Shown: one piece after another, positions 831-42,400 of the stretch
Position numbering within the stretch: position 1 is the first letter of the stretch
Layout of the letters: each line of letters starts with the position of its first letter
NCBI GenBank assembly: GCA_008632985.1
Contig: QPGO01000058.1
Coordinates: 124,001-188,000 of the forward strand
Origin: Psammoneis japonica
Taxonomy: Eukaryota
Direction of reading: 5' to 3'
Length of the DNA stretch: 64,000 bases
Program-made: the position numbers and the translations under genes
The notes under the pieces: generated by a model
What the model saw: the letters and a program-made list of their open reading frames with translations, nothing else
What the model was told of the DNA's origin: nothing
Database searches by the model: none

Positions 831-1083
831 TGCTGTAGAGTTGTTGTAGTTGTGTACGTTTGTCGTTTGGATTTTCGTGTTGGGTCTCGATCATCCATCA
901 CTCGCGCAAAGGTGACATCAGCAAAACGTCAAAACCAAATTTGACAAAATCAAAAAATTGAAAAATCGAAAAATGCCGCCGACGCGCGCCGACGCCAAAA
1001 CAATAACGCCTTCATTTTTTTTTCACGACGCAATAGTAAACGTTGTGGCGAGCAATACCCTTTTCCCTTCTCTGTTGGCCACC

Positions 1084-9060: not shown

Positions 9061-11304
<2,244 letters not shown>

Positions 11305-11599
11305 TCACACCAAAACTAAGCACGATGTGTGTGAGCGTGTGCGTTGTTGATGGCGTTGTTCGGTTCATGGCATGATGTTTCACACACGTGGAATCAGTAC
11401 CAAATGTAACGTACACTACGCACGTACAAGTACGACGCATACCGCGTCTGCACGACGTCCGGTATTGGAGCGAGTGGTCGACGTCATCGTGTCAGATTGT
11501 TTAACGCCGAGAACATCAACATGACGTCAATTGTGTCTCTCTTTTTATTTTTCGCGAAATCGCATCGCGCGGACTTCCCTCCGACACCCAATGGCAACT

Positions 11600-14500
11600 A
11601 ACGAAACACACGCTTGCCAAAAGCACATCAACAATGGCGTTCATTGGCACATGCATTCAAGGAGGACACCTCTGCCCCTGCCGTGCACATTGAGTCTGCA
11701 CCATTGTCATCCTCCTCATGGGCCCACTGGATGCACATGAAGGCCGAAGGGGGATTCAGCCATGGCACAAGCCTGTGCCAGGTTTTGGTGCAGACAAAAA
11801 TCTCTGCAGAATTCCAAAAGGTGTTGAGACTGCCCACTCCTGGATTGTTGGTGTTGGCTGACAAGGCATCCATGACCAATTGTCCCACAAATTTCAATGG
11901 GTCCGGGGTGGCAGAGCTCCGGCCCCAGCTCTCCAAAAAACTCCAAAACACATGCCACCGCCACTTGTGCTGACACCAGGCAAGCTGCTGGTGCTGCTGT
12001 CACAGACTTCCAGTCAAATCAAAACAACAACTCAACAGCACTGGGAAAGTGTTGTCAAGAACCATGTTGACATTGTTGGTGACAGTTGGCAGTTGGTGGT
12101 GCAAAAGAACTTCGCTGTTGTCTGTCGCTGCACAGCACTGACCTTGTTGCAAGAGTTGGATGAAGATGTTGCCATGATGGTGTCTGTGTCAATGTTGGGC
12201 ATGTTGGTTGTCACAGAGTGTTGACTTGTTGCTCTTGAAAAAACTGACTTTTGGCCGCAATTCCCACATGACAACTTTTCATTCAGCAGCAGCCATGATC
12301 CAAAAAAAAGCTTCAAACAGACCATCACATGCCTCCTTGGCAATTTCCAACTCTGCTTTGGGGGGCCTGCAGCTGCAACTCTCAACATTTTTCAGTGTCC
12401 CCTGCTTCAAGGACTGACCAGAGTTTGGGCAAGACATTGGCAATGTGAGTGTTTTTGTGGTGGCCCTGTTCTTGTGGGCCTCGTGACACTCAAGTGCGTT
12501 GCCTTTTTGGACCCACAAGCAGGAAAGGCAGTGGGGCTCATCTTCTGCCAACACTTTGTCAAAGAGAAAATCTTTGTGACCTGTTGCCTTTTTTTGGCTT
12601 TCTTGACATTGACCATGGCAAACGCAGGGCAAAGAGTTACAAACTTGGACATGACTGATGAGAATTGAAGGATGGCTTCAATGTTGTCACTGCTGCAAAG
12701 GTGGGTTGTCAAAATGATTGTGCCCAAAACAGACTGTGAAGTGACATCAGTGCTCCCATGCAATCTTTGCGATGATCCAAGATCTCCTCATTTTGCGCGT
12801 GCATGTGCAATCCAGATCTCCAAGCTCATCAGCGCACGACTGAGGTTTCGTGGATCAGATTGTTCTTTTGTTTTGCTGTTGCGGTTCCTGAGCCAAACAC
12901 AAAAAAGCTTTGTGAACATCATTCTTTTTCAAGTTGGCATTCATGCCATTGTTTGGGTTGCCAGGGTCCAAGCCACTGACGATGCTGTTGAAGCATGCTG
13001 TGGCTCCGTTGTCAGTTTGGGCATCTGTGCTGCCATCACCAATGTGACAGATCTTGAGCCAGACTTGGATTGTGTCGAGTGCATCATGGGTGGGCTTGAA
13101 TCCAGTGTCGACTGCAACCAGGGCTGCTCAGAAGCTGAGAATGACGTTTGTGTCATTGTTCGTGGTTGCAAGAAAATGAGCCATGGCTGTGCGGATGAAA
13201 TGGAGGAAATGGTGTGGTGCATTTTGACTGCAGGAACCCTCAGTGTGATGCCATTTTTGAAAAGCACAAGTGCTGCCACATTGCATGGATTTTGGCACCA
13301 GTTTTCATTGTGGCTGGTGTGTGGCATCACCAAGTCATGAGGCGGAACAACCGTGGCACCCTTGACATGGTTCACGCAAGTCATGACATTGAACTTTCTG
13401 AGCAAAGCAAGGGCATTGTCCAGTGTTTTGTGCCACACAAAAACACAAAAATGTTTTGCAAAGGTGTTGTTGTAGAAAGTTGATGCTGTGTGTTTGACAA
13501 ACCAGGAATGACAGTGTCATCTTGTGCACTCTGCTTGCGATTCTTGTCGTTGACTTTCCATCTCACTTGTGGTGGAGAAGGAAAGGCATTGGTGTCAAGC
13601 ATGTGCAGTTGTTTCGATGGTTTTGTTGTGGGTAAAAAACAACACTTTCTTCTGTTCTTTGCTTCTTCTCTCCTCTTGCTGCTGCACCATGCATTTCAGA
13701 ATCCTGCCACCACAATCAATCCCACCGTGAAAACTGGCATGATGCAGCCACAAATTCGATTTCTGTCAAAAATTAGTTGCAAAGTGCAAGCTCCACATCA
13801 TGAGGCTTTTTCACGCACTGAAAACCCGTGCATGATCTCTTTTGGTTTGGATGCAGGGGCTCATGTGCTCCATTCTACTTTGTGTGAGAGACTCATGTGC
13901 GCTGGTGTTGTGGGTGTGCATTTTGCACAATGAGTGTCCTGGGAGGCAACTCCTTGTAGAAAGTTGTCAAGTCCGTCAAACACAACCCACCAACGCATTG
14001 CAATGCGAGTCAGCCATGCTTTCATGCTGGGAGCAATGCATGGCTGAGTTGTCATGTCAGCAGTTGTGAACCCCTCGCTTCTCTCCCAGAACCCATGGGC
14101 CCCAGAGAAACAAGACCTTGCAGAAGCATTGCGTTTGTGTCTTCTCGCTCACATGATCATCCCGTGCATTTATCTCCATCCTTGGCATCATGGCCAACAG
14201 CATGAACAAGAAAGTGCACTCCATGTTTCAAGTGCTTTTCAGCCAGGGGAACTGTCATCAGCAAACAAGAAAGAGGCTTGGGCAATTTAGCCTCTTGCAT
14301 TGCTTCAAATGAACGACCCACTCCTGCACTGGAATGTGCCTTGGCTGTCAACATCTCTCAAATTTGCTTGGTGCAGAGAACATGTTTGTTCTCTCAGAAT
14401 GTGGACACAAAAAATGAAGCATGCTGGCATGTGCCATGCTGCTCTTGAGTGGAAGCACAACAGTGGCAGAAGCTCTTTCTGGAACAAACTGGCAAGAAGG

Positions 14501-15830
14501 CAATGTGTGCCACAGCAAGAACAGGGGCATTGCTGGCATGGAAGAAGCTTGTGAATGTCCTCAAAAGCTGGGAGGTTGAGCAAAATGCACACAGCCTGTG
14601 TGAGGTGATGAACAAGCCCATGACATCAATGGAAAACAATGCACCATCCCTTGGCACATGCTTGACAACCTCTGTGAAGCTGTCAAACACAGATGTCAAT
14701 GCAGTCATTGACCTCCTGGCTGGAACGCTCAAGCAAGAGTGCACCAAACATTTTGAGTTGACAGTCATGTGGGGAAATCCAGATGCCAGCACAGTCAGCA
14801 AGCAAGCTGGGAAGCTCAAACAAGAATGGGCAAAGCATTTTGGGCCCAGCAAAATGCACCCCAAGGAACATCTTGGTGTGACCCCCCGTTGTTTGCTGCA
14901 CAGCAAAAAAAGCAAGTTCAAAATGATCGTGCTCCATTGTGTTGATGAACCAGCTGGGTTGTTGCTGACAGGAATGAGTGGAGAGAGCCCAACTCCAGTG
15001 GCAAGCTGTCCACTTCACATGAACAAGAAGAATCTGGAAACCTTGGACATGGTCATCCAAGAAACTTTCCACACGGTCACACAGCAACAGCAAAGATGTT
15101 GCTCCATTTGCAAAAAAGACTTGCCCCAACTGCAGACAGCAACATTGTTCTCATGTGCCCAGATCCATGCCTCTGTGGCTGACAACTGAAAGAAGCTGAC
15201 ATGAGTGTCTCAACATGACCCTTGGGTGCAGTCAATGGTGGGCTGGACACATCACACACAGCTCACCCCAAGAGTGTGTGAGAGGACCCCTTGCAGGTGC
15301 AGTGGCAACGCTGAGCAGAGTGTTCAAATTGGCAGTTCCTCCAAGCAGAAGCTGAACACTCACAATTCAATGGAAAGCATGCTGGTTGGCAGGGTGCGCT
15401 GTGTGGGCTGCGTGCCAAGAACCCCCGCTGATGTCGGAGCGACTCAGCTGGGCATGACCCACGACCAAAGAATCATCTGAAGAACATGACATGAATGATC
15501 TGAAAGGAAATGGTGCTGAAGATGGCACAAATGATGGAACTGCAATTGACGAGGACAACAACTGTGCAAGTGAGAATGCTCTGGGTGTTGGAGAGGACAG
15601 AGGAGAGAGAGAAGGATGAGGTTCTTGGTGTGAGGGGAGTGAGTGGTGTGTGATCCCTGGGACATCAGCTCATTCTAAAGCAATTGTTGATTCTAACACC
15701 CATCAGAACACACTGCATCTTTTCGTGGGAGATTTGTGACCCCACACATCCAAACCCAAGAGACAAAGGCGGTTGTTGAATGAGACACGAGAAGGGCATG
15801 GCGTTCCGCATTCCAAAAGCTGGTCCATCG
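11600..15830. mobile_element. TpA-depleted decayed repeat block B (family unidentified)
   Basis: Hand count: 2 TA in 14041-14640. Overlapping ORFs in all six frames are essentially Tyr-free and rich in Cys/His. CG is also reduced. Confidence 0.65.
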
Positions 15831-18949: not shown

Positions 18950-19964
18950 GGTGTCGTTGATGATTGCAATCTCTGAACTCGTTGTGCAGTGAATGTCGAA
19001 TGTCTTTCGAGGTCTCGCGTGACTGATTTTCCGGATTTGTCGTGTGTGACAGTAACTGGTATGTATTAACGTATGTTATATTCATTGGCTTATGCCTTTA
19101 CTGTACCTCTATCTTTGTATGATAGTACAATTTCAAACTGCCAAAACAGTAAATTTTGTATATAGATCTGAATACAGGAAATCCCGTTATAGCAAATTTC
19201 GAAATCTTAAACATGATATAAGACAATTATTATATGTCTATACCATGAATAAAAATATTCAATATTAATTATTAATATAATTAATAAGCGACAAAATCGA
19301 ACGACAAGCGTTGAGAGCTCTACAGAGCAGACCGCGATTTTCAGCGATTCCAGATTCTTGATCGGCGATCGAGGACCCGCCAAAAAAGGTGAACGACCAA
19401 CGCAACGACCAGGGACCAGCTGTAGGCCCTAGCCTACCGTGCTGTGGCTGTTGTGCTGTGCTGGTGGACAGAGTGACGGGCAAGCCGACATGCCTTTGTC
19501 AGTTTGTGCACTGAAACAAGGAGCCATTCATGATCACCTCTCCAACATGCGGAGTCACCTCAGGAGCCGCTCACGAGGAAAAAAATGGCGGAGCTGCAAA
19601 CAATGTCGAGGAGAAGGAAGAGAAGAAGATGTTCCATGACACTGCTTCACATGTTCGTGTTTTGTTCTTTTGTTGGTGTCTCATCACATCTGGGACACCA
19701 ACAATCCAGGTGTCGCACTGGCCGTCAAGATTTCTTGAAACAAAACCCGACATTTTCTCCCTTTAATCCAAGATCGTGCTGATTTGACGAGTCAGCTTTT
19801 CTGAAATGTTCAACAACAAACATCCATGTTCCTCAATTTGACCATTTGCCCCCCCATCCGACAAGCCTCACGTGTGTGTTTGATTCCATTTTAATTTCTG
19901 GATTGTGCGTTGATCAACTTTCTGGATCAAAATCGCCACCTGTGTCCGTCAATCTAGATTCTAA

Positions 19965-22771
19965 TTGTTTTCTCAATTTTCTCTCCCTGCCCATTCCATC
20001 CTTCCTCCCCGTCCATCCGCACATTGCATCTCTGTGTTTCTGCCCTCACCATGTCCCCAAGTGATTGTTGCTGCACCCACTGTTTGCTTTCGATTCTCTT
20101 CTCAACTCCTTCGTCTGTGTGCATCGGCCATGTTGTCTGATGGTCTTGTTTGTCCATGGTGCAAACGAAGCAGTTTCTTTTCCAAATGTGGCCTCAGCAG
20201 GCACATCGCAACTAACTGCCTCCGTTCCGCCGTTTCCACCAAGTCTTTTGGTTGTCCTCGTTGCGGACAATGTGGACTTGACTCTGAAAACAACGTGCAG
20301 CATCACCCATCTCGGCACTGCACCGCAGCATCTGGTCTCCATCCCCCATTGACACAGTTGCGCCGTACAACCCAATTGTCTTCTTCATCTGGCGGAACAT
20401 CTCTTTCCTCTCATCCTCTGGATTCTGCCTCCGTCGGCTCCCTTGGATCCAACACCAACAAACCCAAATGTCCCCACTGCTGTGTTCCCTTTTCCAACAT
20501 CGCCCTTCATCTACAGAAGTGCTCACCCTGCCGTGAAAAAGAGGAAATGTCCCTTCGCCTGCATGCCGCATCTTCTGCTGCCGCCCATGCACTTCCCCCT
20601 CCAGATGACGACCATGATGAATCACTGGACGACCATGACGATCCTGCTGGGTTTGGTTTCTCCGACGACGAACCCCCTCCTCCCCTCCCCGAAGTCCTTT
20701 GGAATCCAGCTCCATCTCCTCCCACACCAAAGGACAATTCTTCTCCAGCTTGTCCTCCCTCTGCCGGAAGTGGACTGCGCCCACCCTCTGTCAGACGCTC
20801 TGGTCGATTGCGCTCAGCTGCCAACTTTGCTGCTGCTGGTGCAGCCTCCCAAAATGTCCGCCGATTTGTTTTGTTTGCAGATGATGGTGTGTCCGCCCTT
20901 GGAGAAGACAGTCCTGTGGATGTTCCCGAGTTCATTGGAGCCGACCATTGCGATGGCAGTTGTGGCCCCCCCTCAATTTCCCGTCCGATGGAAGATCCTG
21001 TTTCCTCCCTCGATCAACACAACCCTCTTGGCCCGCCGCGTGATGTCGCACCCGATGAGGATTTCGATGTGCCTCCAGTCTGCTTGCCCAGCATCGCACC
21101 CATGGTGCATTTGCTGCATTTGTGTCGTCGGTCAGGTGTTGCAATTGACTTTGTCAACAAAGCAGTGAGAATTTTGCATGAAGAGCATGCAGAAAAACTG
21201 CTGGATTTGTCCAAGCCACCCATCACTGCCGCCATGGCGATGAAGCAACTCCTGGGGTTATTTCCCAATGTTCCTCTCCCCCGCACTGCCACTGTGATGC
21301 TAGAATGTGACAATCCAACACAGCAACAGAAGGATGGACCCAAATGTCATCGCTCCCCACCTTTCCTGGTTTGCAGTTTCACCAAGACCTTGCAGGATCT
21401 CTTCACCGAGCCAGTGTTCCGTGATCTTTCCAAGTTGCAGGTTAATCCAAATGATGTCTGGTCACCTCATGTGCCACCCCCCACCGACGGCAATTTGGAA
21501 CCCAGCGCCAGCCCAGCTGACGGTTTTGAGATGTCGTTCCCGGATTGTCCTGGGGACTGGCGATTGTCCACTCAAAGTCAAGACATGGGTGACGGCGAGT
21601 GGCAACAACGTTGCACCAATGCAAAGGAAACGGCATCTGATTTTCACGTTCACCTTGTCAATTGCTTGGACAAGACCGGAGTTGGTGCGGTCAATCCTCA
21701 CGGGATGGAGCCTGCAATGTGCTCACTTGCCATGATTCGAGAGGACGCATGCCATGACCACTGTTGTTGGCATCCACTCGGATTCATGCCCAATTTGGAC
21801 AGGAAAGACAAGAAAGACAAGCTTGGGTGCCTTGTTGTTGCCAACCATCACCGCATTCTCAAGGAGGTCCTCCGTGGTCTGCTTCATTGCCAGGCAAATC
21901 CACCCATTGTTCGTGCAATGACAGGCACTCAACACCGCCATGTCAGAGCTGTGACACATTGCAACTCCCTGTTGGGGGACATCCTCAATCAAGAACGCAT
22001 TTGTGGAAGAGTCATGGGCTGAAGCAAGACCGAGAGGTTGTCTCACAACTGCCATGTGCCCTCCCACCGTTCTGATGACCCCCTTCATGTCTGCCAATTT
22101 TTTAACCAAGCTTTCACAGAGTTGCTCACTGTGGCTGCATTGGGTCCGGATCCAGAGGATGACAACAGCCGTTGGCACCAGTGTGTTGAAAGCGTTTCCC
22201 GGAAACATCCTGCAATGACATAAAAAAAAAGGCTGAGACTGAGCTGGCTTCATCCCTCATTTGCCGAATGACCACATGCTCCAAAATTTTGAGAAAAGTG
22301 TTTGGACAGCACGCAGTGGACAATGCTTGCTTTCCACTTGACATGGGAGACAACCCACGTGGTGCATTTGGCATGACCATTGCTGACACAATGCATGTGT
22401 TGGAGGCGGGCATTGTCCCTCAAATGATGGAGGCAATCATTGGAGAGATGTCTGCCAAACAGAAAGAGGAGTGCGACCACATTGCATCTGAGTTGTTCTG
22501 CACATCCCATTGTCGTCTAGGTCAGAGATGTGACTGCCCACAAATTCGAGTTAACGGGGGACTTTCCACACTCAGTCAAGAAACAGAGTCACCCAAACAA
22601 TGTCTGTTCACTGCTCAACATGAGTTGATCAGCGACTTGGACAAGATTTGGGAGAATGTGGTTTGCTGTGGGAGATGTGCTTTATGTCACGATGCTGTGC
22701 AGCCCAGTGTCAAGTGCACAAGCAAAAAAGTGACACCAAAGGCATGCATTGCCATGCACACGCATCAATGA
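19965..22771 (+). pseudogene. Decayed Plavaka-like transposase with N-terminal C2H2-like Zn fingers
   Basis: Motifs CLDKTG...PHGMEPAMCSL, WHPLGFMPNL, NHHRILKEVL, LLGDILNQERICGR, and HAVDNAC...DMGDNPRG...DTMHVLEAGI, recognised by eye as Plavaka-type. There is no Tyr in the 685-aa ORF. Confidence 0.7.
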
Positions 22772-22897
22772 AAAACTGACACCAAATTCTTCTGTTGACA
22801 AACATGTTTAACAACAGAAAAGTGATGCCGAATTGCTTTGTTAACAAATGGTTCTAACAACAAAAAAGTGACACCAAATTGCTCTGTCAACAGATGG
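22772..22897. repeat. 46-bp tandem repeat, about 2.7 copies
   Basis: Units begin at 22772, 22818 and 22864 (AAAA(C/G)TGA(CA/TG)CC(A/G)AATT...GT(TG/TA/CA)AC). Confidence 0.85.
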
Positions 22898-23373
22898 GTG
22901 CATTTCTAAAAAAGTGACAGTTTGTTTGTGGTGCGGAATGTGTGGTGGATGGAAGCTTTTGCTTTGTGTCTGCCGCTGTGGTGATGTGAAAATGTCTCAC
23001 ATCATCACCAACAGAATTGTGAGCAACAAAATTGTTTTCCATGCTTTTGAGACAGCTGGGATGACCAATTTAATGAGATCATTCAGTGAACAGGATCGAC
23101 GAAGATCACATCACACGTGACCATTTGTGAAAAAAACGTCTGTGATGCACCCGACAGATGGACTGCCATTGTCAAAACATCACATGGGACTGTTTGCGAA
23201 AAAAACACCCGTGGTGCCCACAACAGACAGACTGCCGTTGGCAACACACATTCAGCGAGAAAGCCGTTTTCGTTGCAAAGCAATGGGTGCGGACTTTCGC
23301 TACATTGGGTCTGTTCCACTTTAAGAAAAAGACTGGGCACCATTTGATTTGGCAGAACAGGCAACTTCAGAGA

Positions 23374-24100
23374 ATGGCGCGGAAGTGTTCTGTGAACGGA
23401 TGCCAGAAATTTGCCCGTTGGCCGACAATGTTGTGCCAGAAACATGGCAAGTTGCTGACACACCCGGGCGAAATGAAATCTCATGTCGTCAAGAGCAAGA
23501 AGGTGGGGTCCAAAGAAAGAGAGCACCAGGAAAGAAAAAAAGGCTGCTTGCAAAAATTCAAAACACCACCACCCCTGCTCAACAAGATGACAATGCTTGC
23601 AAACAAGGCACCAAGCAGGAAGGGAGAAAAGGAAGGACACCATTTGTCGGCGAGTTTGCCATTGACAAAAAGGAAAAGGCGGAAGGCATTGGGTTGGCAG
23701 AAAAAATGTTGGAGTTCATTCCTGGCTTTCCCCTGGCGGGTGATTCAAGCAGAAAGACATCCCGGCACACAGCAGCAAACGCTCCTGCTTCAAGTTCAAG
23801 ATCAACTTCTGGTCAAAGGGGGAAATTCATCGCGATTGCGTGGAAACAAAATCATCACCTGGCAACAAATTTTTCACCATGTTTCTGTTCCTTGATGACA
23901 CAACGGAGCACAATGGTGCAGTGGAGATGTGGCCGGACAGTTGTGAGGTGACATTGAATGAGAAGGAATGCGAAAGACAATTGGTCAGGTTGGGTTTGGA
24001 AAAACAATCACTGGTTGGAGAAGCAGGCACTGCATTTGTTTTGATGCAAGAATGTTGCGCCGGCAAGCGTGCGAACACAGCAAGCGTGTGAACAAGCATG
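23374..24100 (+). pseudogene. Decayed Zn-finger (CxxxxC...CxxHG) plus PhyH-like 2OG-Fe(II) dioxygenase
   Basis: RKCSVNGCQKFARWPTMLCQKHG, then across frameshifts EIHRD (HxD), FFTMFLFLDDTTEHNGAVEMWPDS and GEAGTAFV-FDARML. Confidence 0.5.
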
Positions 24101-25639
24101 TGTTGGAACACAAAACTGGCGAAGCAGCAAGTTGACACAGGCACAAAGTGGGTTTGTGTAAAGGGCAATTGACAATGCATTGCTTGCATGGACGACAGTT
24201 GCATTGCAACAAAGTGAAATTGCAAAGTCACCCACTTTTGGCAGGCTTGAATTTACGTTTGATGTCAGACCCTGGGTCGTTCCCAGTGGAATGCCTGGTC
24301 TCCACGGCATCGTCTCTTTTCTTGGCGCACTTGTGAAGTGGGTGCCTGTTGACACCGCCTCCCCACAACAGATTGTCTGGACAGGCAGGAACAAAGAATG
24401 CTCCATGCCTCCATTTGTGCGTGTGAACACAAAACATCACGTCCAGTGAAATGACAATGGTGCCTTCAGGACACTCGTTGGACAGCATCTCCTCAAGTTG
24501 GTTCTGTGTCGCATTGTTGTCAAAAAGCATTTGCCCATTGTGGCCATTGAAGAAAATCTTTAAGTTGTTCAGACGGCACAACCGACGAACAGCATCGTCT
24601 TCTGAGAGGAAGTCCTGATTGATCAGGGTGGGAAGCGACTGGTGTTGTTGTGCCATGTGGCATCACACCACTGAGAGCCAAGATCATGACTGGGATGGTG
24701 GAACTCGATGCTGCAGGCATCACAGGCAGGAACAAGCAGACGACAGGCAATCGCAAAACCGCCAACACCACCACCAACGTCAAGGAAATTAAAACGGCTT
24801 CGAATTTGTGCCGCAAAGAGAGCGGGGTTACAAATGACCTCGGCGGAGAAGGCAAAGCTTGCCGCACCACCATGTGATTCCACACCACCACCAGCAAAAC
24901 GACCAATTTGATCGTCAATTGGTGGCATGTGATTGCAGTGGAGGGAACACGCATTCCTGTGACGGGAACGACTCACGACAACCACATCTCAGTGACAACA
25001 ACACACTTCAGTGGACATTAAAGTGGGTTGGAAAATTTGGGCAACAGAGAGAGCAACTGGACAAATGTGGTGTCGGGGAAGCAGAGGGAATGACCTGTTA
25101 AGACAGGGACAACAAATGGGAGGTTTGACACGACTCAACACACCAAAGGAAGCAGATGTTGCATCAACAAGGAAGCGCAATGCATGCACTGACTTGAGGA
25201 GATACAACACATTGTTTGGCATTGATTTAAATGACATGGCAATCTTCATTGGTGTGTTGGATTGGCCAAAAAAGGTGCGCAATTCAAAACAGTGAAACGT
25301 TGATAGAAATGCAAACATGGGGCAGGGAATGAGAACTCAAAAATGACACAAAGACCTGTTTGAATCGAGAGAGGACACGCGAGCAATGACAAAACCGAGA
25401 AAATCACATGCAAAAGTGCGTTCTTTTTGCAACTTGCCTTTCATGAAGCGACAGGAAAGGACGGAAGTTCCAAAAAAGAGGAAGCCATTGGGAAGGTAAA
25501 AAAAAATGGAGGATGCGGTTCTCACAGGAGTGACGGAGGGAGGAAGCGCAACTTCCAGCGGCAAGTGAGATCGAGAAAGGACATGACAAAGAATTGCTGA
25601 TGAACTGACATGGTCATTGGATTGATCTGTGTGGTGTCA

Positions 25640-26620
25640 CATGAAGTCACCATGAGTCCTGCAGTGGCGGCCTTGTTGCATGCACAAAGAAACAAACATG
25701 GGGAATTGAACAGATTCCAGCATGCAGGTGGCGATTCAAGTTCGGTGGTGACTCCCACAGAGGGATGTCTTGTGTTGGATCGTGCATCGGCGGTGAGCGA
25801 GAAATTGATGGCATCGATGTTGACCAAGGTCATCAATGAGAGTGTTTGGCCATGTTGCAAGTTCACAATCTTCGATCATGAACTCGCCGTGGGAGGAGAT
25901 CACATGAAATTGGTTCTGCAGGAGTTGAGGAGCATGGTGTCTTCACCGGAGAAGTTCTGGGAAGAATGCAAAGAGGTGCTCAGGACCAAACTCAACCGAA
26001 AGAGGAACAATGTGCAGGACAACATCAGGAGGAGAATGACAGGCAAGCAGATGTGTGCATGCCGGTGATTGTGTTGGAGGTGATTGTCCAACGGGATGAG
26101 TGTCTCTTCCTTTGCCATTGTCTGTGCAGTTGCTGCTTTAGAGGGATCGCTGGTGGCTTGCAAAGACTTGACAAAGGGAAGAAATGACAAGGACACACGC
26201 GTGTGGTTCTTGGAAACTGTGGTGCCGACAGTGGTGGGACAAGCGCAGTTTGGCAGAAGCACAACCAACATGCTTCAGGAATGGCTTTCGGTTTCGTCGG
26301 AGGCATTTGCTCTGCTGGTGTGCTTGAACTGCTGCAACAAGGTGAAGGACACGGCAGAGAAATTGGAAAAGGAGGAAAACATTGCAAGGAGAAGAAAGCC
26401 AACTGTGAAAGATGCTGCTCCTGCAAAGTGCACAGCGCAGGCGGCGGGGGAATCGGCAAAGAGGAACCAAGGATGGAGCAAGGAGGGGATCGAGAAGTGC
26501 AATGATCCATGTCACAACCAGGGATTCGGTGCATGGTTCAAGGAGAGAAGACAAACTTGTCTCAGGAGGAAAACAAGAAACGCAAAAGAGAGGAAAAAAG
26601 AAAGGAGAGAGAGGAAGGAT
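25640..26620 (+). pseudogene. Decayed transposon accessory ORF (2 exons) of the type found with diatom Plavaka-like elements
   Basis: VWPCCKF...FWEECK...LNRKRNNV and SSEAFALLVCLNCC...KCT...GWSKEGIEKCN match a recalled pattern SxEAFALL..NY..KYT..GWSxEGI..YN, with Tyr replaced by Cys. Confidence 0.55.
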
Positions 26621-27158
26621 GGGCGGCACCAATGGGAGAGGACCTGCCATTGCAGGCAGTGGCTGCAGGCAACGGAGCGGCAGCAAACACCGCAATGGCC
26701 ACCAACCAAACTGGTGTGTAAACTCAGTTTGAAACAAACAACAATGTCTGGACAAGTGAAAATAAAAAAAAACATTCTGCGATCGGCCCAGATGCAACAA
26801 CATGTGGCAATTGGGAATTTGGGTTTGAAAACGGCACAGCAATGAGATGAAATGTAGGCAAGTTGGCAGAAAAGGAGGGTGGATTGCAAGCAGCAACATT
26901 TGTGTTAAAAGAACGAGAAACCCCAATGTTAATTGGGGCGCAGGTCTGCATTGTGTGAAAGGAATGATCACACTTAGAAGTGAGAAGCGATTTGGGGTTT
27001 AGAAGCTCACAAACTTGCACAGTTCTCATGTATGTTCAAGGAGAGAATTGGCCCACAAGGTGACAAAAATCTGGCATTAAAGTCAAGAAATGCCCAGATT
27101 ATGGCAGACGGTCAGACCCAGATTATTGGCGTCCCAGATGCAGTGTGGCTTGATTTAA

Positions 27159-27940
27159 ATGAAGAATCGAGCAAGCCGTTTTGGGAAACTCGTTCAGAAC
27201 GACAGAGGCAAGAGTCGTCAACGGATTCGAAGCAATGTGATGAAGCCGACCTTGCCGTTTAGCCGACATGCGCATTGCAATTTTCATGACAACACATGTG
27301 AGTGTGGAGCATTGCGATTTCTTAAAAGCCACTGCTGGGCAAAGTCTGCAACAAAGTTTCCGCTTTTGAGTCAATCCGATCTCACATTTCATGCGTCTCA
27401 AAAAGACAATCATCCCATCGATTTGTTGGAAAGTTTTGGATTTCGAAATGTCATTGTACAAACATGCCAGCAGCCTCACTGTGCAAACAAATGGAAATTT
27501 CCATTGTTCCGTTTGCCAGAAACGTCTTTTTTGAAAGAAGCACAGAAACAGAGTGGGGCCAAGCAAGCCGTGGTGGATCCATTTGCAAAGCATTGCTTTG
27601 ATGACTGTGATTTTGTCATTCGCATTAATCCCAACATCCTGTTTCGTGATGATCAATGGGTGATCAAGCAGATTCTTGACCCATCCATTGATGCCATTTT
27701 GGCAAAGGGCATCCCACGACCGCCACAATGGCAATGTCAACAAGGCCACAATGACACGCCAATCCTGTTGCACGCGGATTTTGCAGGGTTTCGACCCTCA
27801 CGCATGAATGCATCGGCACTTGTGTGGCAAGCCGAGCACAATGAAAGAGATGCAGCGGAGGAACACTTGTCAAAAGCGTGGAATTCATTGGCCACATCGG
27901 ATCGAGCAGCATGGAGTTGGTCTGGTTTTCCTCGAGCATT
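27159..27940 (+). pseudogene. Decayed host-type gene, possibly glycosyltransferase-like
   Basis: FVIRINPNILFRDDQWVIKQILDPSIDAIL...LHADFAGFRP...AEEHLS reads as a real protein but contains no Tyr before the N gap. Confidence 0.4.
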
Positions 27941-27964
27941 NNNNNNNNNNNNNNNNNNNNNNNN
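27941..27964. other. Assembly gap (24 N)
   Basis: Run of n in the sequence. Confidence 0.99.
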
Positions 27965-28500
27965 GCGCCTGTCATGCATCGACATGAAATTCTCAAGGAC
28001 TGCCCCAACTGTTTCGCTGCTGCGGATGGCAAATGGCACTGATGTCAAGGATTTTAGAGACAAGGAATGCTGCAGGTTCTACTCTGATGAATGGCATTGA
28101 CAGCCACCCAAGAAGCTGCACGCATCTGAAAACTGGACTCTGCCAGGCCCACTCTCTTGCTAACTAACTTTCAACTTGCCATTCCCGGCACCGTCTGCAA
28201 TCACACCAGGGCAGTTCAACCCCTTCAGAAAACGCTTCTTTCACTCTAAAGAGTGATCTTCACTGATGTGATGTAAGAATCGGGGGGGGGGGGGGCAGCA
28301 GATGCCCAACGATGATTGGGACGACTTGAACGAATAGGTACAATCTCGCGCGAACTTCAAATCTGCTGGGTCGAAGTCGGTCGCGAGTCGTCGTCTTGAG
28401 TCGCTTGTCAACAACATATTCAATATGTTCAATCTGGTAACTTGTCACCCCCCGCTTATATGTACAGTGCGTGTTGCTAGGTTAGCTCGAAGAAGCCACC

Positions 28501-34005: not shown

Positions 34006-35674
34006 AACAACCCAAGAGCTGACTGTTGTTCAATCGTAGTGTAATGATTAGTAGCTTGATGACTACCACAGCACACATTTCATCAGGCAAGTCTGCCCAC
34101 TGTGCTGCAGGCATGCCACATTGAGCGCATTTTTTACAGCATCTCCAATCTTCAGGCTTCAGAACGATTGACCATTGAACAGCTGCCAGGACAAGAGAAA
34201 AATCTCTGTCTAATCTCTGTCTAAAAAGAAGCCAATGAAAGGCAAGCCGTGGTGTCTTCAAGTGAGATGAATGCGCAGTTTGAAAAATTGAGAGATGCGA
34301 ATGCATTGTCTCAGTTCATGACTGTGTTGCTTGGTGTCATCACATCCCACCCTCCACAATGCCAAGGCCAAAATTTTGCTTGCAACTTTCACAAGAATGA
34401 AGAAAAACTTTCTTTGGCTTGCAGCACAGCTGCTTGTCAGTGCAAGGCAGGAAGCCAAAAGCATGTCCAAACCTTGCACAAACCAAGAAGACCTCTCTCC
34501 AACATCACCATGATCTCCTCACAGTGCTGTGGCTCTCCTCCTGCCAATTTTCTAGCCTGCAACAGTTTTGCAACCAAAGAGAAAATGCTGGCACAAGTGA
34601 CAACTTTTGCTGCTGCCATGACTGAGGGGACAGAAAGGAACACACAAATGTCAAGTTGTTGGGACAATTTTTTTGTGCAAGGCAGGAGAAGAGAGATGCA
34701 CAAAACCCCCCAGGGTGAGTGACCAGTCTTTCCACCAAGGCTGGGTGCTGCCAAATTGCCACTTTTTCCTGGTCTTCTTTCCTTTTCCTTTTTTTGATTT
34801 TTGCAGAGCAAGCAACATTGACAACAGAGTGTGGTTTTTTGAATGGCTTGTGTGTTGCCCCTTGCCAGTTGCAAAATTGCAAGTTGAAAACATTGTCTGG
34901 TCCAGCCCTGGCTCCAAAGAAATGCAGCCAGCATGGCAGCTGCTGGAGAGCCACACTGTTTGGAAATGACAAAAGATGAGGGGCTCTCAGCGAGTTTGCA
35001 GCAGCAAAAACCCCGCCTCTCACTCTCTTTTGTTTCTTCAAGTGTGGGGGTGCATGTTGGTGATTTTGCAGATGAGAAGAAAGAAGTTTTGCATCATGCA
35101 CTTGTTGAATCAGCTTGCACAACATTGCCCCAGTTGTGCTGCAGCACAACAAATTGTTTGAAGATGCTGCAGGACACATTTCACAGACAACTCCTGCCAC
35201 CCAGTGAATTGAGAACATCACGGCATCTTCATGCTGCTCCATGCATCAACTCTCTGATGGCCAGTCATGGGAAAAGAGACAAAATCTTCCCATCTAGAAA
35301 AGCAGTGGTGCCACTCTTGTTGATGAACTGCGTGATTGACTGCACTCAGCAATGGCGGTGGATGTTGATGAGCTGGAATGCACAAACACAGGGCCACATG
35401 GAAAAGAAGCACGAAATGTGTTTTTTGAGTGCAGCTTGAAATTTTGAAATGTTTCACACAGCAAAGTGGCAAAAGGTGAGAAGCTGAAAGAAAGTGCCGG
35501 TGCAAGCAACAGAGAAGAAGCAGAAGCCAGCAATGGCAGCGCCAGTTTGATGTCTTCCCAAACGCTTTTTCCCAAGAGGAATGGCTGCAGCAGGAAATGG
35601 CAAAAGCCAAGGACATGAGCACAGGACAGCTTCTGAGAGATGAGCTCAATGAAATGCTGGGAACGTTGACCAAG

Positions 35675-36120
35675 TGCAGCATGCATGCAGACAAAAGGTT
35701 GTTTTTGTCACGCCCTTTGTGACATTTAAAGGCTGCAACACGTCGCCGTGACACATTGACTCTTGTCAGTGGCTGTGCATTGCACTCCTCCCCATGCATC
35801 ACGCGTTCATGCGGCTCTTTACCAACGTGCACTGACACTGCACGGTTTTGGCGGAACAGTGTGGGCACGTGCGAAGGAACGTGCAGAACTGTACAGAGTT
35901 TTACGCGTTCGACAGTGATGACGTTGCTGCAGACAACTCCCACTCAGGGTTTCGAACCCCTGGCCTCCTGCCCAATGGTTGCGATGAACCACTCCGCTGT
36001 GAATTCACAATGCAGCATGCATGAAGACAAAAGGTCACTTTTGTCACGCCCTTTGTGACATTTAAAGGCTGTAACACGTCGCCGTGGTGCATTGGCTCTC
36101 ATCAGCAGCTGCACATTGCA
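35675..36120. repeat. 110-bp direct repeats (35675-35784 and 36011-36120) flanking a 226-bp spacer
   Basis: Ungapped alignment TGCAGCATGCATG...TTTGTCACGCCCTTTGTGACATTTAAAGGCTG...CATTGCA. Confidence 0.9.
35934..36006 (-). mobile_element. tRNA-derived (Pol III A/B box) SINE-like head
   Basis: Minus strand has CAGCGGAGTGG (A-box-like), a D-stem GCGG/TCGC and CAGGGGTTCGAAACCCTG (T-arm, B-box). The anticodon region is too short for a functional tRNA. Confidence 0.5.
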
Positions 36121-36500
36121 CAAGAGTTTCTTTCACAAAGTCAGAGTTTGTCAAGGTGCACATTGAAGTGGTTGTTGATGGACCAAAAGGAGGCCACATG
36201 GGTGGTGGAGGATCAATGTAGACTGGTTGAAGAAGTGCTGCTGCTGCTCAGGATGAACCATGTGGTCCAACCTGCCAAGATGCAGTCATGCAAAAAAAAT
36301 TGACCTTCGTTCCAAAGCCTTGACTGCTGCAATGACAACATGCAGCAGCCAAATTGACTGCAAACAAACTTTGCAGAACTGCACCCACACACATTCTGCA
36401 GATCCCACTGCTCAGGTGAGCATCTTTTGTGGGACAAGGGAGCTTTTCACACTCATTTTCCATTTTTCAAACTGCGCCAGTCTTGCTGCTTCTTGTCAAG

Positions 36501-37330
36501 TCAACCAGCCAATCCCCCCCAATTGTCAAAAGGCAGATCAAGCCAAGGGTGCTGACAATCAAGGCAGAAATGTTGCTTTCGTGCAATGGCACACCTCCTG
36601 GCAGGAGGCCAGTCCACACCAACTCTTTGCCAAGAAGTTTGGGGGTGGCAACAAAGTTGGCAGGTGCCAGTCATGGGGCTGACAAAATGTTTTTTGCCAC
36701 ACTTGATCTTGTGACATTGCTTCGTCACCAAATTTTGATGGTCAGCAACAGTCTTCAAGAAGACCAGTCCAGTCAAGGCAGTTGTGACACCCGTTCAGGT
36801 GAGGAAGCTGCCTTTCACAGCAAATGTGGGGCTGTGCAATGCAAATGGCATGAGCAAGGCCATCATCACATGCAGAATGCTGCAAGAGGCAGTGAGTGGC
36901 AAGACAGGCAAGGTCTGCTTGGCGTCAAAGTTCTTGGTCTGGTCTCCTGTTTGAGGGACACCAGCACCCCAAAGCAAGAGGAAAAGTGTGAGGTGCAGAC
37001 CAAAAACAATCATGATTTGCATCAGCCAAACTTTGAGAGGTTCTGTCCATTAGAGTGGCTTGAGAATGGAGGTGCCAAATGCAAGAGCCAATGACAGTGC
37101 CGCTGCTGGCACTGAAGATCCATGTCCCACAGAAAAGCAGCAGGCATTGTGGATCAAAGTCAAAGGAATAGCTGTCAACAAAGCAGCTGCCATGACAACC
37201 AACAAGGCATTCCAGTCAGTTCCTGAGGCCCCAGAGTTGCTTTCAAGTTCTCCAAAAGGCTGTCCAACAAGCTTGTCGAGGCCCCTGGCAGCACTTGTGT
37301 CAGATGTGAGGGTTTTGTCTGTCACAAAAT
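36501..37330 (-). pseudogene. Decayed DUF1295 / steroid 5-alpha-reductase-family membrane protein gene
   Basis: ORFs 37050..37352, 36795..37022 and 36501..36776 share one frame: AIPLTLIHNACCFSVGHG, FGLHLTLFLL, GLVFLKTVADHQ, TGTCQLCCHP. These correspond to YxFSVGYG, YGLRL..FL, LExxADxQK and GxYxxxRHPNY. Confidence 0.65.
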
Positions 37331-39383
37331 AAGAGGAAGAGATGAGAATCACACTTGGGTTGATTTGTGTTGATTCACAAAAAACATGGTTGAAACCGCA
37401 AAATCCTCAACACCACCACTCTGCTCACAACTCTTCTCATCGAACGTCCAAATCACCATGCGACCACTTCTTGTTCAAGGAAGCACTTTCTTCCTCCTCT
37501 TTCACAGCTTGATGCTCTGCTGTTGCCGGTGCTGCATGTGAGTGCTGCACCCACATGACATTTGATTGTCAGTGTCCTGGGATTTGTGTGTCTCATGGCA
37601 GTCGTGCAGACAAAACCCAAGAATGTGACCTTGAACAGGCAAACCCTGGTGTCCGCAAAAGAAGAACATGGCATGTCTTTGCCCATTTTCATGGCTTTTT
37701 CTGTCATTGCAATGCTTGTGTGGGTTTCATCCAACCTCTGTTCATTGTCAACAAAAGAACTTCTGAACTGGGGGCCAGCTCAGATTGCATCTTTTGCTTG
37801 TGAGAAGGGCTTTGGATTTCTCTGTTCTTTTTCTTCTTCCATCCAATCTGACACATCCAATGTGGACTGATCCTCATCACAGGTTGCACATTGGTGTCAA
37901 ATCTCAGCCTTTGCCATGTGTGAACAATGCTGTTGCAATCATGGAAAAGGGATGACCACAGCACACATGCCACACATCATGTGCACACACCTCAACTCCC
38001 TCTCTCTCTTGCACCTCCACCCGGGGCATGCAACATGAGCAGAAGTTGAGCAACAGAGTTGATTGTCAATGAATTGATCATCTGTTGATGATGTGATGAA
38101 GAGGTGTGTGTTTCACCATGCTCACCCTGAAGACTCCTCTCTCCTCTCTTGACTGCTGAGCAAAACTCTGGAATCCCTGCCAGCATGTGTCAATGACATC
38201 TGTTTCCTGTGCTGCATCCTTTTCATCAGCACATTTGGAGATGGCAGTGTGGCAGGAATGTGCAACAATTGGCCAAGTTCAGTGCCACCATCAAGTGCTG
38301 ATGCCATGCTGAAATGGCTGGCAACAGCGCAAGTTCCAAGTGTGCAGCAAACTGTTGAGCCTTGCCCAAGAGTGCTTGACTTAAGAGTGGTGGCAGTTTG
38401 ACCACAGGAGCTCTGGCTGCTTCTTCAATGACCTTTGTGAGTTGAGTGAGTGAGGTTCTTGTCTCCCCAGAGCAAGTGTTGAGCAAGTGAGCTCTGTGTC
38501 AAGCAAAGTGGAAAAAAGCAGTCATTTGTGCACAAGCAGATGACTGCAACAGTGCACTGCACCAACTTTCCCCAGTTTCTGCATCACCGCAATCAACAGC
38601 ATCTTTGCAAAAGCCCCACAGCTCCTGCCACTGCTGAGACCAGACAAGAAGAAAGCACTGCATTGACAACTGTCACCCACACTGGAAAAAATTGCCATTT
38701 CTTCCATTGCCCTGCATGCCAGACACATGGAAAAATGACAAAATGCTCCATCAAAAGCAGCCAGCAAATGAAGGAGAGATGCAGCCAGCCCTCAGCCAGG
38801 CACACTTGTTTTGTTTTGGCCCTTTTCCCTGATGCTTTCTGTGCTGCAATTCCCCATTTTTGCTTGAACGCACCAACAACCAACAACCACAGGCCACTCG
38901 AGGTGGCAGTGCAACTGCTGCTGCTGTGGCTGAAGAGAGCCACCACCATGACCCACAGAGGGCAAGGAGAGAGTTGATTGTGCCACTCTTTTTTTGCCAA
39001 ATCAATCACATTTTTCATGAAACTCTGGGTTGCCTTTTACAAAGCCTTGGCACCCTCTGTTGCTGAAAGCCTTTTGCCTCCAATTCAGAAGAAGAAGGGA
39101 AAAATCCCTCTTCTGGTGTGCAAATGGAGGCAAGTTGCATCTTGTCAAGATTTGTGCCATCCAAGCAGAGCTTCAAATCATCAAGAAAGGCTTGGATGGA
39201 AGCTTTGTCATTTTCAGTTGATGCATTTTCCCCAACCTGCATGACTCCACTCACCAAGGCTGGCAGTGTTGTGTGCAGAGCTGCGTCATTTCAAAATCAG
39301 GCGCTGGTTGAAAAATGAAGAAATCTGCTGACAAGGACAAGCTGGCGGTGTCTTGAATCAATGCAGAAATTGTGAACCCCCCC

Positions 39384-39410
39384 CCACACACACACACACA
39401 CACACACACA
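39384..39410. repeat. (CA)n microsatellite preceded by a C run
   Basis: cccccccccacacacacacacacacacacacaca. Confidence 0.9.
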
Positions 39411-42400
39411 TCTTTGGATGTTTTCACAGAAACTCCCAACCCTTTGGCACCACACAACTGTCGGAAAGGTGCCAGATGCTTCCTTTGCCACCACAAAGGA
39501 AGTCTTGCACTTGATTTCCAGGAGAGGAGCAACTGGGCTGCTGTCAGAATCAGCAAGGTTCAACTCAATGCTTGGAGCATCTCCTGCCATTGTTGCCACA
39601 GAATTGAGGGCCAGAAAGCTCCACTTGATGAAAAGCTTGGGATGTCACTTGGTGACCAAGAATGAAGCCTGTTTCAGTGCATGTTGCACAAAGTGATGGG
39701 AAAGTTGTGGGGAATCCAGTCACTTGGAAAAGAAGATGGGCCAGAGCTGGGCTCAGCTGTTGCAGTGCTCAAGGGATGATGTGATGGAGAGCCAGTCAGC
39801 AGGGGGGCAACACAGGCCACCGTTGGCAGTGCTGGAGGGAACTGCTTTGAACTTTGTGGGTCAAGGGCTGCTTCTTGTCAATGCTGCTGAGGGTGCCAGG
39901 CTTCACAAAAAGCTGGGCAGGCCACTCCACATGACAATCCAGACAGGACTTGTGTTGAATTTTGTTGTGTCAGAGTTGTCCAGTTCAGATCAACCCACTC
40001 TTCCCTTGAGTTGAAAACTTCATTGCACACTGAACTCCTCCTTCTTCCATGTCAATCAAAATGTTCTGCAGGAGAAGTCATGTTGCCCAAAGTGTCAATG
40101 AAGAGGCCAATGAAAGTGACAGATGAGGGTGGCAGAATGTCCAGCCCACAAGCACCAAACCTGTGCAAGTGCAGTGCAGTCAATTCCTTTGGGGTTGTTG
40201 GCCATGTCCAATCAAAGCAGTGGGCCAGCAGAAATGAAAGGAGGTTGAGATCTGAGCAAGACAACTCTCCCCAAGGCCACATTGTTGCTGAAGCAAGATG
40301 GCAAACTCACAGCTGCTGTGGAACAACAGTGTTTGGTGCCAGCAAGCAAAAGGGGCATTGGGGACATTCATCACAGAATGTTGACCACACTGAGAGGAGC
40401 AGTTTCTGTTGTCCCACTTGTCAATGACTGCAGCACAGGGCACCACATTTTAAACTTCCTGGCAGACACCTGTGACAAAGGCACTTGTGCTCTCTCACGT
40501 GCATCAGCAATTGCAGTGCATGCACAACAGGCACATCTCTTTCACCACCAATTTCATTTGAAACAATGCTCATGGCCAGCCAGCAAGGGCTGCTGTGTGG
40601 CTTTCTCTCATGCACTCCATTGTCGCTGCTTGTGCCCACTCCTTTGTCCCAACTTTTTGGATGTTTTTTTGAGAAGGAATGCATCTTCTAGAAGGCCCCA
40701 CCCAAGGAGACCATTGATTGGGTCATTTGCCAGATGTGTTGAACAAACAGCTCCAGACAAGCCAATGTCCATTGCAAGCTCAACAGTGGCGTCATTGTCG
40801 ACACTTTCAGCTCTGCTCTTGAGGATCTCAACCCACTTTGCAGACTGAACAAGGCCATCAGCAATGGAGACACATCTCCATCTCTTTGTGAGCTTTCTTG
40901 GATTTGCCTCAGGAGTTTGCCACAGACTGGCTCAGCTTTGAATCATCAAAACCATGTCTGCGGTCTCCTGCAGAGGCTGTGATTGATCAATGTGCTTGCA
41001 TGTGGCCTGCCCAAATTCTTCAGGGGGAACGGAGTTCAGCTCTCATTGCAGGAGCCACCAGATTCAACATGCCTTTGCAGGAATGAGTCTTTGTTGTCTG
41101 TTCTCTTTTGTTGATGCCCCCACAAACTGGGAGCTGCTTTTCACCAAATTCAATGAGCACAAGGCATGTGGCCTGCAGGGAACATGTCACAGCCACCCCG
41201 TGCACTCCTTTTCTGCTGGCATCCATTGGTTCATCCAGCTTCTTTTCCAGCAGCTCTTTGAAGAAAATCATTCACCCCAATGCCAGAGCCCTCAGGAGAT
41301 GACCAATCATGTCATCAACAAGGTCCATGGAACATGTGGCTCCAGAAGAGCCAATGTTCATGGCAAGTGCAGCACCACAGTCATCATCAATGTTTCCAAC
41401 ACTGTTCTCAAGAACCTCGCTCCACTTCATTGATTGAACAAGCAGGCTGAGACACACAATGATGTCTCCAGTTATGCTGGGGCTGTTCCTTGCTCACTTG
41501 GACTCACTCTGAGATTTTCTTGTGCACCTGTGCAGCTTCAAGTCACCAAACACTTTTCCATGGTGTTGCTTCAGCCAATGCAGTGATTCAGTCAACACAA
41601 TTGCATGTTGCCTGGCCAAAGTCTTTGACAGGGAAGAAGCCACATGTGTTGTTTTTGTCATGGCAGGAAACCCTGGAAATGCCACATGGAAGTTTCTTTG
41701 GTTTGGTTGTGCCATGATTGCTTTTGACATCTTGACAAATTGGGTGAGTTCTCTTGCCAATCTTGTCAAAACCAAGCTTGACAGCATCTCTGGAATGCCA
41801 AATGGCTGCCTCATGCATGCCACCAACACTTTCTCCCAAGGCTTTGTTTGGCCTGCTGCTTGTTGGCATTTGTCAAGAGGAAAACCACCATCCACAAGGC
41901 CAGAGCCCAGACTTGTTCCAGACTTGGGTGCGCTCACGCGCGAAAAAATGACCCTTTTTGCATGAACGCGCGGTCCACACTTGCGGCACCATTTTCGACA
42001 GTAAAAACATGACAATTTTCAAATGTGCTGTATGGGCACACACAGAAAGGTCTTGTGCGTGTGCCCATGTGTGCGAAACTGTGGATGGACTCAGTCATCA
42101 GTCGCTAAATTGCACCGTAAGTTGAGAGCTCGGTTTTCGATGAGCGATTTGTGCATGCCTTGATGCATTTGGAGATTTGTTGTTCTTACACACAAATGAA
42201 GTCGTTAACACAGCATAATTGATCTTTTGCTAGAATGCGCGAATGTGATTTACACTCAACGGATCGAATGAAGCATTCGTTGATTGACAAGTTTGGGACG
42301 ATGTGAGAAGAAGTGCAGCTCAGCCCACGCAATGGCGTCGACTTGGACCATTTTTCACTGTTTGAAAGGCACAAACGATTGATGCACTTGAACAAGTCAA

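Follow-up and report, generated by a model that had tools for sequence, protein, structure and literature searches.

A stretch of 64,000 nucleotides of the genome of the diatom Psammoneis japonica (GenBank assembly GCA_008632985.1, contig QPGO01000058.1, positions 124,001 to 188,000 of the forward strand; hereafter the window, to which all coordinates refer) contains an open reading frame (ORF) of 685 codons without a single tyrosine. This ORF is, with high probability, the decayed transposase of a Plavaka/EnSpm-like DNA transposon present in many copies, this one erased in place by a region-restricted process that converts TpA into CpA or TpG, together with decay of CpG. The cause of the loss of Tyr is a TpA-specific process acting block by block across the window, and not a peculiarity of this transposon. 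The diatom genome bears a TpA>CpA/TpG footprint so far known from one chlorarachniophyte.

Composition of the tyrosine-free ORF and of the surrounding DNA

The ORF extends from stop to stop on the forward strand (19965..22022) and encodes N-terminal zinc-finger-like CxxC motifs and a linker rich in Pro, Ser and Asp, followed by the transposase core. Its 685 codons included none for Tyr, 36 for Cys (5.3%) and 34 for His (5.0%), compared with 2.6% Tyr, 1.5% Cys and 2.8% His in seven clear genes of the same window, taken as host reference. At the host frequency of Tyr, the probability of finding none in 685 codons is 1.5e-8. Six TA dinucleotides were present in the 2058 bases, none of them forming a TAY codon. 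These counts bear out what had been claimed earlier from the letters of the DNA (the sequence-only reading), namely an ORF lacking Tyr and rich in Cys and His, and the four motifs quoted there (CLDKTG, PHGMEP, WHPLGFMP and NHHRIL) were all found in it. The interval 19965-22771, which had been described as one 685-codon feature, does contain this ORF, but comprises two ORFs in differing frames, the second of which (22190-22771, 193 codons) is also devoid of Tyr. In first-order Markov simulations of the transposon copy (n = 500), the longest ORF reached 437 codons at most, the median of the longest chance ORF having risen from 149 to 215 codons. The real ORF is far longer than any simulated one, indicating that it is the relic of a real gene.

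The observed/expected ratio (O/E) of TA in the whole window was 0.36, with a bimodal distribution along its length. Five blocks, accounting for 40% of the 64 kb, showed TA O/E values of 0.04-0.09 and CA and TG values of 1.5-1.9, while the remainder showed 0.55 for TA and 1.2 for CA and TG. Block edges were sharp within tens of bases; at 19432, counts in 250-bp bins dropped from 23 TA to 1. With TpA depleted and CpA and TpG enriched, the G+C content of the blocks was 0.49-0.55, compared with 0.47. The block containing the transposon copy (19436..28145) had CA and TG O/E values of 1.54 and 1.67, showing that both strands were struck about equally. Among the TA dinucleotides remaining in the blocks, 27 of 116 (23%) lay within TTAA, compared with 60 of 1462 (4%) in host DNA, and the residual density relative to host DNA was 0.03 for TAT, 0.06 for TAC, 0.11 for TAG and 0.22 for TAA. 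Any enzyme model must account for this context dependence of the mutator, a bias towards TTAA and a near-loss of TA before T or C.

The loss of TA is accompanied by a loss of CpG. CG O/E values were 0.21-0.60 in the blocks and 0.93 in host DNA, and the extent of CpG loss ranked with that of TA loss across the five blocks, the latter being the more complete in each of them. The sequence-only reading had considered CG abundant in the region of the ORF, and TA loss consequently independent of CpG decay. While CG is indeed far commoner than TA there, its O/E across 20001-22000 (0.57-0.65) is below the host level, and the supposed independence does not stand: CpG is depleted too, conserved Arg residues are replaced by Cys, His or Gln, and the stop codon that ends the ORF is aligned with an Arg.

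Homology to Plavaka-like transposases

A HMMER scan of the ORF covering 1.84 billion representative proteins returned 157 matches at E<=1e-3. The best relative was P0003, a metagenomic protein of 717 aa (phmmer E=4e-52, 38% identity, ORF residues 353-684), which matched the window in tblastn at 35-44% identity. When 154 proteins (150 homologues and 4 cluster members) were compared with the window by tblastn, 204 matches were obtained within 20952-22669, defining the extent of the homology on the forward strand (in frame 3 to 22193 and in frame 2 from about 22244), and none across the 3' 4.3 kb of the element. The zinc-finger-like segment at 20115-20336 resembles repeats in P0113 and P0121. The Plavaka family PF18759 was matched by nine of the 20 homologues scanned, eight of them at or above the cut-off of 26.3 bits, and the neighbours of P0003 in the Atlas were Plavaka clusters from haptophyte-labelled and basidiomycete records. 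A single-protein scan of metagenome DNA for relatives matched 102 stretches, none of which was confirmed.

The invariant Asp columns of LDKTG and GD and the Glu of MHxxE, which we take to be the catalytic DDE residues, are retained in the window copy. The homologues also share an invariant pair of Cys spaced 14 residues apart (C471 and C485 of P0003), with conserved His inside the same stretch. As judged from these alignments, the C-terminal half of the ORF appears to be a real but distant Plavaka/EnSpm-like transposase. The family proposed by the sequence-only reading is thus upheld, through the homologues that match PF18759 and not through the ORF itself. Neither of the two outcomes that would have spoken against that reading was encountered: Plavaka homology exists, and homologues seldom carry Cys or His at the Tyr-majority columns.

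Tyrosine and arginine columns

An alignment of 30 homologues and three fragments of the window was used for the analysis of columns. None of the four Tyr-majority columns retains Tyr in the window (H, Q, C and H, respectively), while the homologues have Tyr in 143 of 202 instances and Cys or His in three. Nine Tyr of P0003 have an aligned residue in the window, which is Cys in four cases, His in three, and Leu and Asp in one each. The mapping of Tyr columns that the sequence-only reading had put forward as its check therefore came out in its favor, as conserved Tyr columns hold Cys or His in the window.

Taken motif by motif, the picture is mixed. The C of CLDKTG and the first H of NHHRIL stand, as proposed, in place of Tyr, which occupies those columns in 25 and 27 of the 30 homologues; the latter corresponds to the Tyr of RNYH, invariant across a 15-sequence alignment. 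The column of the H of PHGMEP holds Tyr in 14 and His in 9 of the 30 homologues. The H of WHPLGF, on the other hand, replaces Arg (24 of 30 homologues), and the M residues, which had been read as former Ile, occupy columns that are Leu/Met or variable in the homologues, leaving an origin from Ile unsupported. Arg columns in general follow the same pattern as those of Tyr: of 14 conserved ones, six are retained and four are Cys, His or Gln in the window, whereas Cys, His, Gln or Trp occur in 25 of 508 instances in the homologues. The segment ARRSHRSWR of P0003 reads ACHDHCCWH in the window. Both TAY (Tyr) and CGY (Arg) codons decay to TGY or CAY, which explains the excess of Cys and His.

A core interrupted by a stop and a frameshift

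The ORF comprises the zinc-finger-bearing N-terminus and about two thirds of the core, and ends at an in-frame TGA (22020..22022, forward strand) where the closest relative has Arg; it is probably the product of a CpG transition, CGA>TGA. Homology continues across this codon and then shifts from frame 3 to frame 2 between 22194 and 22243 (forward strand), as seen in tblastn. Certain other copies of the element hold one extra base after 22221. Compared with its relatives, then, the transposase core is interrupted twice, once by a stop and once by a frameshift.

Enumeration of codon changes showed that no sense codon becomes a stop through TpA>CpA or TpA>TpG, and that CGA>TGA is the only stop that CpG transitions can produce. 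By contrast, changes of the type made by repeat-induced point mutation (RIP) include CAA>TAA, CAG>TAG and TGG>TAG. The densities of TAA and TAG were 6.8 and 1.9 per kb in the block and 15.5 and 18.2 per kb in host DNA, respectively, with TGA unchanged. As the loss of TpA removes TAA and TAG whichever of the six frames is read, and yields no new stops, frames remain open, and many overlapping ORFs arise in TA-poor DNA. The proposal that the gene was inactivated by missense changes while its frame stayed open is accordingly right with respect to the missense damage and the scarcity of stops, but the frame is closed within the core.

The element and its copies

The ORF lies within a Plavaka/EnSpm-like transposon copy of 7464 bp (19682..27145, forward strand), delimited by its inverted ends and by a jump in depth, and with 45 TA in total. 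The left terminal inverted repeat (19682..19711, forward strand) begins with CATCA, and its arm at 19687-19711 pairs with 27116-27140 over 25 nt at 84%; the right one (27116..27145, reverse strand) has the inward terminus CACTG, three transitions away from CATCA. The TA-poor domain is wider than the element, taking in a further 246 bp on the left and 1 kb on the right, both of single-copy depth. The right end of the element (26855-27124, the last ~290 bp) retains nine TA, and the other 7.2 kb about 36. An assembly gap of 24 N is located at 27941-27964, within the TA-poor right flank, and the contigs of a second run, X2, break off with loose ends at either edge of it. Pfam scans of the ORFs of the blocks revealed no TET/JBP gene in the element.

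Data on copies were obtained by aligning the contigs of the public run X1 to the window at a likeness of at least 85%. The summed contig depth was 950-4900 over 19672-27675 and about 58 in the flanks, a jump that places the borders of the element independently of its inverted ends and corresponds to roughly 30-80 copy-equivalents. Internally deleted forms were numerous among the contigs. The copies differed mainly by transitions (501 places, compared with 117 transversions). Among the 14 best-supported variants listed for the element, six fall into three pairs of neighbouring positions: the window has CA and every aligned contig TG at 21759-60 and 21846-47, and the reverse (TG in the window, CA in the contigs) occurs at 24643-44. 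Positions 21846-47 fall within the CAT (His) codon of the column that holds Tyr in 27 of 30 homologues, the other copies having TGT (Cys), which points to an ancestral TAT that was struck independently. The presence of CA and TG at one and the same dinucleotide shows that the copies were mutated independently.

Differences from run X1 in a single-copy block

X1 contigs reproduce the single-copy TA-poor stretch 11001-15411 with 27 differences. Within the block 11600-15675, which has 59 CpG, 26 differences from X1 were listed, 12 of them at CpG, while host DNA near the block had 0-3 differing sites per 2.7 kb. CpG hypermutability in this block is therefore clear. TA was involved in three of the 26 differences, one of them at a residual TA site.

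Explanations of the footprint

The reading that best accounts for these observations, and that we hold with considerable confidence, is the one given at the outset. A copy of the transposon would have inserted, after which a region-restricted mutation would have struck the copy and a margin of its flanks. The change from TpA to CpA or TpG would be one and the same A:T>G:C transition viewed from either strand, carried near completion, with ordinary CpG>TpG/CpA decay alongside. TAY and CGY codons would have become TGY and CAY, both processes leading to the same products and hence to the absence of Tyr and the excess of Cys and His. The gene would have died by missense, its sole stop in the core being a product of CpG decay, in addition to one frameshift. 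The changes probably arose in the DNA, in place, since the element has inverted ends, the mutations also took in its unique flanks and a single-copy block, and the two strands are struck about equally. The agent may be an activity directed at silenced or foreign chromatin, serving as genome defence, and its simplest chemistry would be deamination of adenine in 5'-TA-3', by analogy with that proposed for the chlorarachniophyte Bigelowiella natans. In its broadest form, that diatoms possess an active, region-targeted TpA editor of DNA, a RIP in reverse that silences transposons and other marked DNA through missense changes alone and is either related by descent to the chlorarachniophyte system or convergent with it, the explanation is tentative, and we would put it somewhat short of an even prospect.

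Several results weigh against this explanation or parts of it. With respect to the identity of the gene, Pfam searches of the ORF and of the second-frame ORF (P0001 and P0002) gave no family at E<=1, and 11 of the 20 homologues scanned had no family either, including the four closest tested (P0003, P0005, P0006 and P0008). Since neither the ORF nor its closest relatives match Pfam, the placement in Plavaka is transitive. The right terminus departs from CATCA at three positions, and a target-site duplication of 2-3 bp was looked for at the ends of the element and not found (the flanking bases are TCT to the left and TGG to the right); it has possibly decayed, both flanks being hypermutated DNA. 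With respect to the mutated columns, one Tyr-majority column holds Gln, which requires two changes, and Leu and Asp stand opposite two Tyr of P0003. The window departs from conserved columns at 52 places, of which three are single TpA steps and five single CpG steps, while 37 require a transversion or at least two changes; ordinary divergence from relatives of 30-38% identity dominates these differences. With respect to the target, one block of single-copy depth is as TA-depleted as the multi-copy repeat, and Pfam searches of 155 ORFs from the blocks (23 + 132) gave no credible family, with faint matches to Zf_WRKY19 (E=0.002) and Adipogenin (E=0.0086). With respect to current activity, one of the ten residual TA sites in 11600-15700 differs from X1, and two CA/TG-to-TA differences could equal ordinary transitions in CA/TG-rich DNA, so that ongoing TpA mutation is only suggestive in this comparison. 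As for the chemistry, the sequence fits equally well a deamination of adenine and a change that starts at the thymine of TpA.

The strongest alternative, which we regard as rather unlikely, is the passive decay of an epigenetic mark: in silent chromatin, the palindromic TpA would carry a modified base on both strands, which would miscode or deaminate easily, as methylated CpG does. Candidate marks are methylated adenine or oxidised thymine (5-hydroxymethyl- or 5-formyluracil). Modified thymines do miscode, and diatom transposons are CpG-methylated. This explanation agrees with the parallel ranking of TA and CG O/E among the blocks (0.037/0.25, 0.058/0.21, 0.078/0.34, 0.082/0.60 and 0.092/0.57), with a depleted domain that exceeds the repeat and takes in DNA of single-copy depth, as a chromatin domain would, and with the predominance of CpG sites among the differences of 11600-15700 from X1, hence mark-driven decay there. 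It is at odds with the far more complete loss of TA than of CpG (0.09 and 0.57 in the element) and with the situation in B. natans, where, according to the preprint (bioRxiv 10.64898/2026.01.13.699255), the process took place in only 11 of 15 lines and is read by the authors as a regulated activity.

Much less probable is that the TA-free state is adaptive, an active family having purged its TA under selection, for instance by a TA-directed nuclease or editor or by a UpA-cutting RNase, and having spread as such, with Cys and His tolerated in place of Tyr. The family is abundant, with 738 of 3715 contig pieces at least 99% like the window copy (a class inflated by short contigs lying between variants), and the putative catalytic Asp, Asp and Glu columns are intact. 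Nevertheless, the window copy has a stop and a frameshift in its core, and a Tyr common to all sequences of the 15-sequence alignment is replaced. Moreover, CA in one copy and TG in another at a single site require independent strikes on a TA ancestor, and the unique flanks and unrelated blocks are equally depleted.

We give very little credence to an origin in RNA, by which ADAR-like A-to-I editing of double-stranded transcripts would have been returned to the genome by reverse transcription. The 5'-U preference of ADAR, as given in the same preprint (bioRxiv 10.64898/2026.01.13.699255), would suit TpA, but the element, with its inverted ends, is a DNA transposon, the changes reach its termini, the flanking 246 bp and 1 kb at single-copy depth and an entire single-copy block, and the strands are about equal both in CA and TG and in the replacement of Tyr (four by Cys and three by His). 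Equally improbable is an artefact in which a base caller or polisher misreads modified TA while the real DNA retains it: systematic errors at methylated motifs are known in some long-read assemblies, but X1, which is perhaps the assembly's own sample and whose library type is unrecorded, gives the same TA-poor 11001-15411 with its 27 differences, a matching signature is found at the protein level in unrelated metagenome assemblies, and frameshifts and CpG-type changes come along with the loss of TA.

The same signature in other blocks and in public databases

The TpA footprint has counterparts outside the element. The first block is cut by the start of the window (1..835; five TA per 900 bases). 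The second (11600..15675; TA O/E 0.04, CG O/E 0.25) has single-copy depth and no recognisable gene. The fourth spans 34223..42001, together with 42759-43570 (TA O/E 0.06, CG O/E 0.21), and the fifth 46780..50396 (TA O/E 0.08, CG O/E 0.34). The TA-poor blocks were dissimilar to one another in a self-comparison of the window, with three short matches only. A foreign or mobile target is evident for the transposon; the other blocks showed no recognisable domains, and one of them contains a pseudogene without a Pfam family.

The fourth block is the most decayed, with TA O/E values of 0.02-0.05 and CG O/E values of 0.08-0.2 over 8 kb, no ORF above chance length and no domain. It contains an internal direct repeat of 111 bp (35675-35785 and 36011-36121, 86%), and its segment 35140-35289 resembles 43421-43566 at 70%.

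The pseudogene, in the fifth block on the reverse strand (48848..49813), is Tyr-poor and encodes a P-loop-like protein without a Pfam family, 57-70% identical to its relatives. It has 1 Tyr, 11 Cys and 12 His, while the relatives have 6-10, 3-5 and 3-8, respectively. Its seven conserved Tyr columns were scored as one retained, two Cys, two His and three other. A TGG is present at 48956-48958 where the relatives stop, extending the frame by about 37 codons, which in this alignment would fit TAG>TGG, and the N-terminus is in a different frame, owing to a frameshift. Proteins of this family have roughly 320 aa, and relatives occur in collections of metagenomes and transcriptomes.

Among metagenome-derived Plavaka-like proteins, three that are nearly identical (P0036, P0273 and P0274) contain 0-1 Tyr over about 1290 residues. 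Between them ten columns are substituted, of which six are swaps of Cys and His, one is Tyr/His, and the others are T/M, A/V and N/D. The expectation that such relics would mislead gene predictors was confirmed, Tyr being below 0.5% in three of the 150 public representatives of the homologue clusters, albeit only in these (median 2.9%). Two further metagenome-derived Plavaka-like sequences, P0127 and P0111, are also Tyr-free or nearly so, and all five are listed in public collections as predicted proteins.

The genes of the window are long single ORFs, and the best named matches of an AMPK-like kinase were only diatoms, at 70-78% identity, which makes the host a diatom with no close relative in the collection searched, and not Bigelowiella. 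An intron-free ORF of 1057 codons with an AAA_16/STAND-type NTPase domain (28486-31659, forward strand) adjoins the TA-poor domain of the element and has normal composition.

Comparison with known systems and significance

A full-text search of the literature, in which most subscription journals were outside the scope, found the signature reported only in the preprint on B. natans, and none for diatoms. In the mutation accumulation experiment described there, two integrated viral regions gained 231 de novo changes, of which 230 were A>G or T>C, every one of these at TpA; 124 clusters poor in TpA and rich in CpA and TpG were described (Mettrop et al., bioRxiv 10.64898/2026.01.13.699255), with thresholds of Rho <=0.43 for TpA and >=1.52 for CpA+TpG; TpA-poor genes were enriched in transposase and reverse-transcriptase domains; and the authors suggested an ADAT2-like deaminase as the agent (bioRxiv 10.64898/2026.01.13.699255). 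The two systems share the rule TpA>TpG/CpA, the footprint left in the long term, clusters on the scale of kb, whose thresholds the window reaches, and single-copy targets. They differ in several respects. B. natans is a rhizarian chlorarachniophyte, whereas the host here is a diatom (a stramenopile), and the targets are inserts of giant viruses and virophages in the former and a DNA transposon of ~30-80 copies in the latter. TA O/E is 0.45 in its giant-virus region, compared with near saturation (0.04-0.09) in the window, where, in addition, clear CpG decay accompanies the loss of TpA. Finally, de novo events were observed there, and a footprint alone here.

RIP, known from Neurospora and other ascomycetes, resembles the process described here in that it consists of regional, dinucleotide-specific transitions, inactivates transposons where they stand and spills over into flanking DNA. 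It differs in making TpA from CpA, lowering G+C and creating TAA and TAG, while here TpA is destroyed, G+C raised and no stops created. RIP itself was rejected as the cause, given the depletion of TpA, the enrichment of CpA and TpG and the raised G+C content. Methylation-driven decay of CpG shares with the window the reduced CG O/E (0.21-0.60, compared with 0.93), the replacement of Arg by Cys and His, the CGA>TGA change and the 12 CpG among 26 differences from X1; it is, however, unable to remove TpA or Tyr codons, and the loss of TA is the stronger of the two here.

As regards the element, PlavakaB of Agaricomycotina has the termini CATCA..TGATG and target duplications of 2-3 bp (Kojima 2025, PMC12730594). 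The left terminus of the diatom element is identical (CATCA), it follows the CMCT rule (5'-CA..TG-3'), it is likewise an element of several kb with inverted ends, and its transposase is tied to PF18759 through homologues. The diatom host, the right end CACTG, the lack of a 2-3-bp duplication, an ORF below the Pfam model and the absence of any TET/JBP gene from the Pfam results set it apart from PlavakaB.

If the favoured explanation is true, TpA-directed hypermutation, experimentally shown in one rhizarian alga only, would gain a distant and ecologically dominant second host, and a near-saturated footprint on a well-defined multi-copy transposon would be suitable for studies of mechanism. Some diatoms are transformable and gene-editable, so that both the enzyme and the targeting rule would become testable. 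The process would represent a counterpart to RIP, a defence without stops that leaves long frames behind, which would matter for gene prediction, repeat annotation and protein databases. Regions of this kind can be detected without annotation from the O/E of TA per kb together with that of CA+TG. Should the more tentative idea of an active editor in diatoms also prove true, A:T>G:C editing of invading DNA would be a widespread defence among marine protists, and a hidden source of long, Tyr-free, Cys- and His-rich phantom proteins in public databases.

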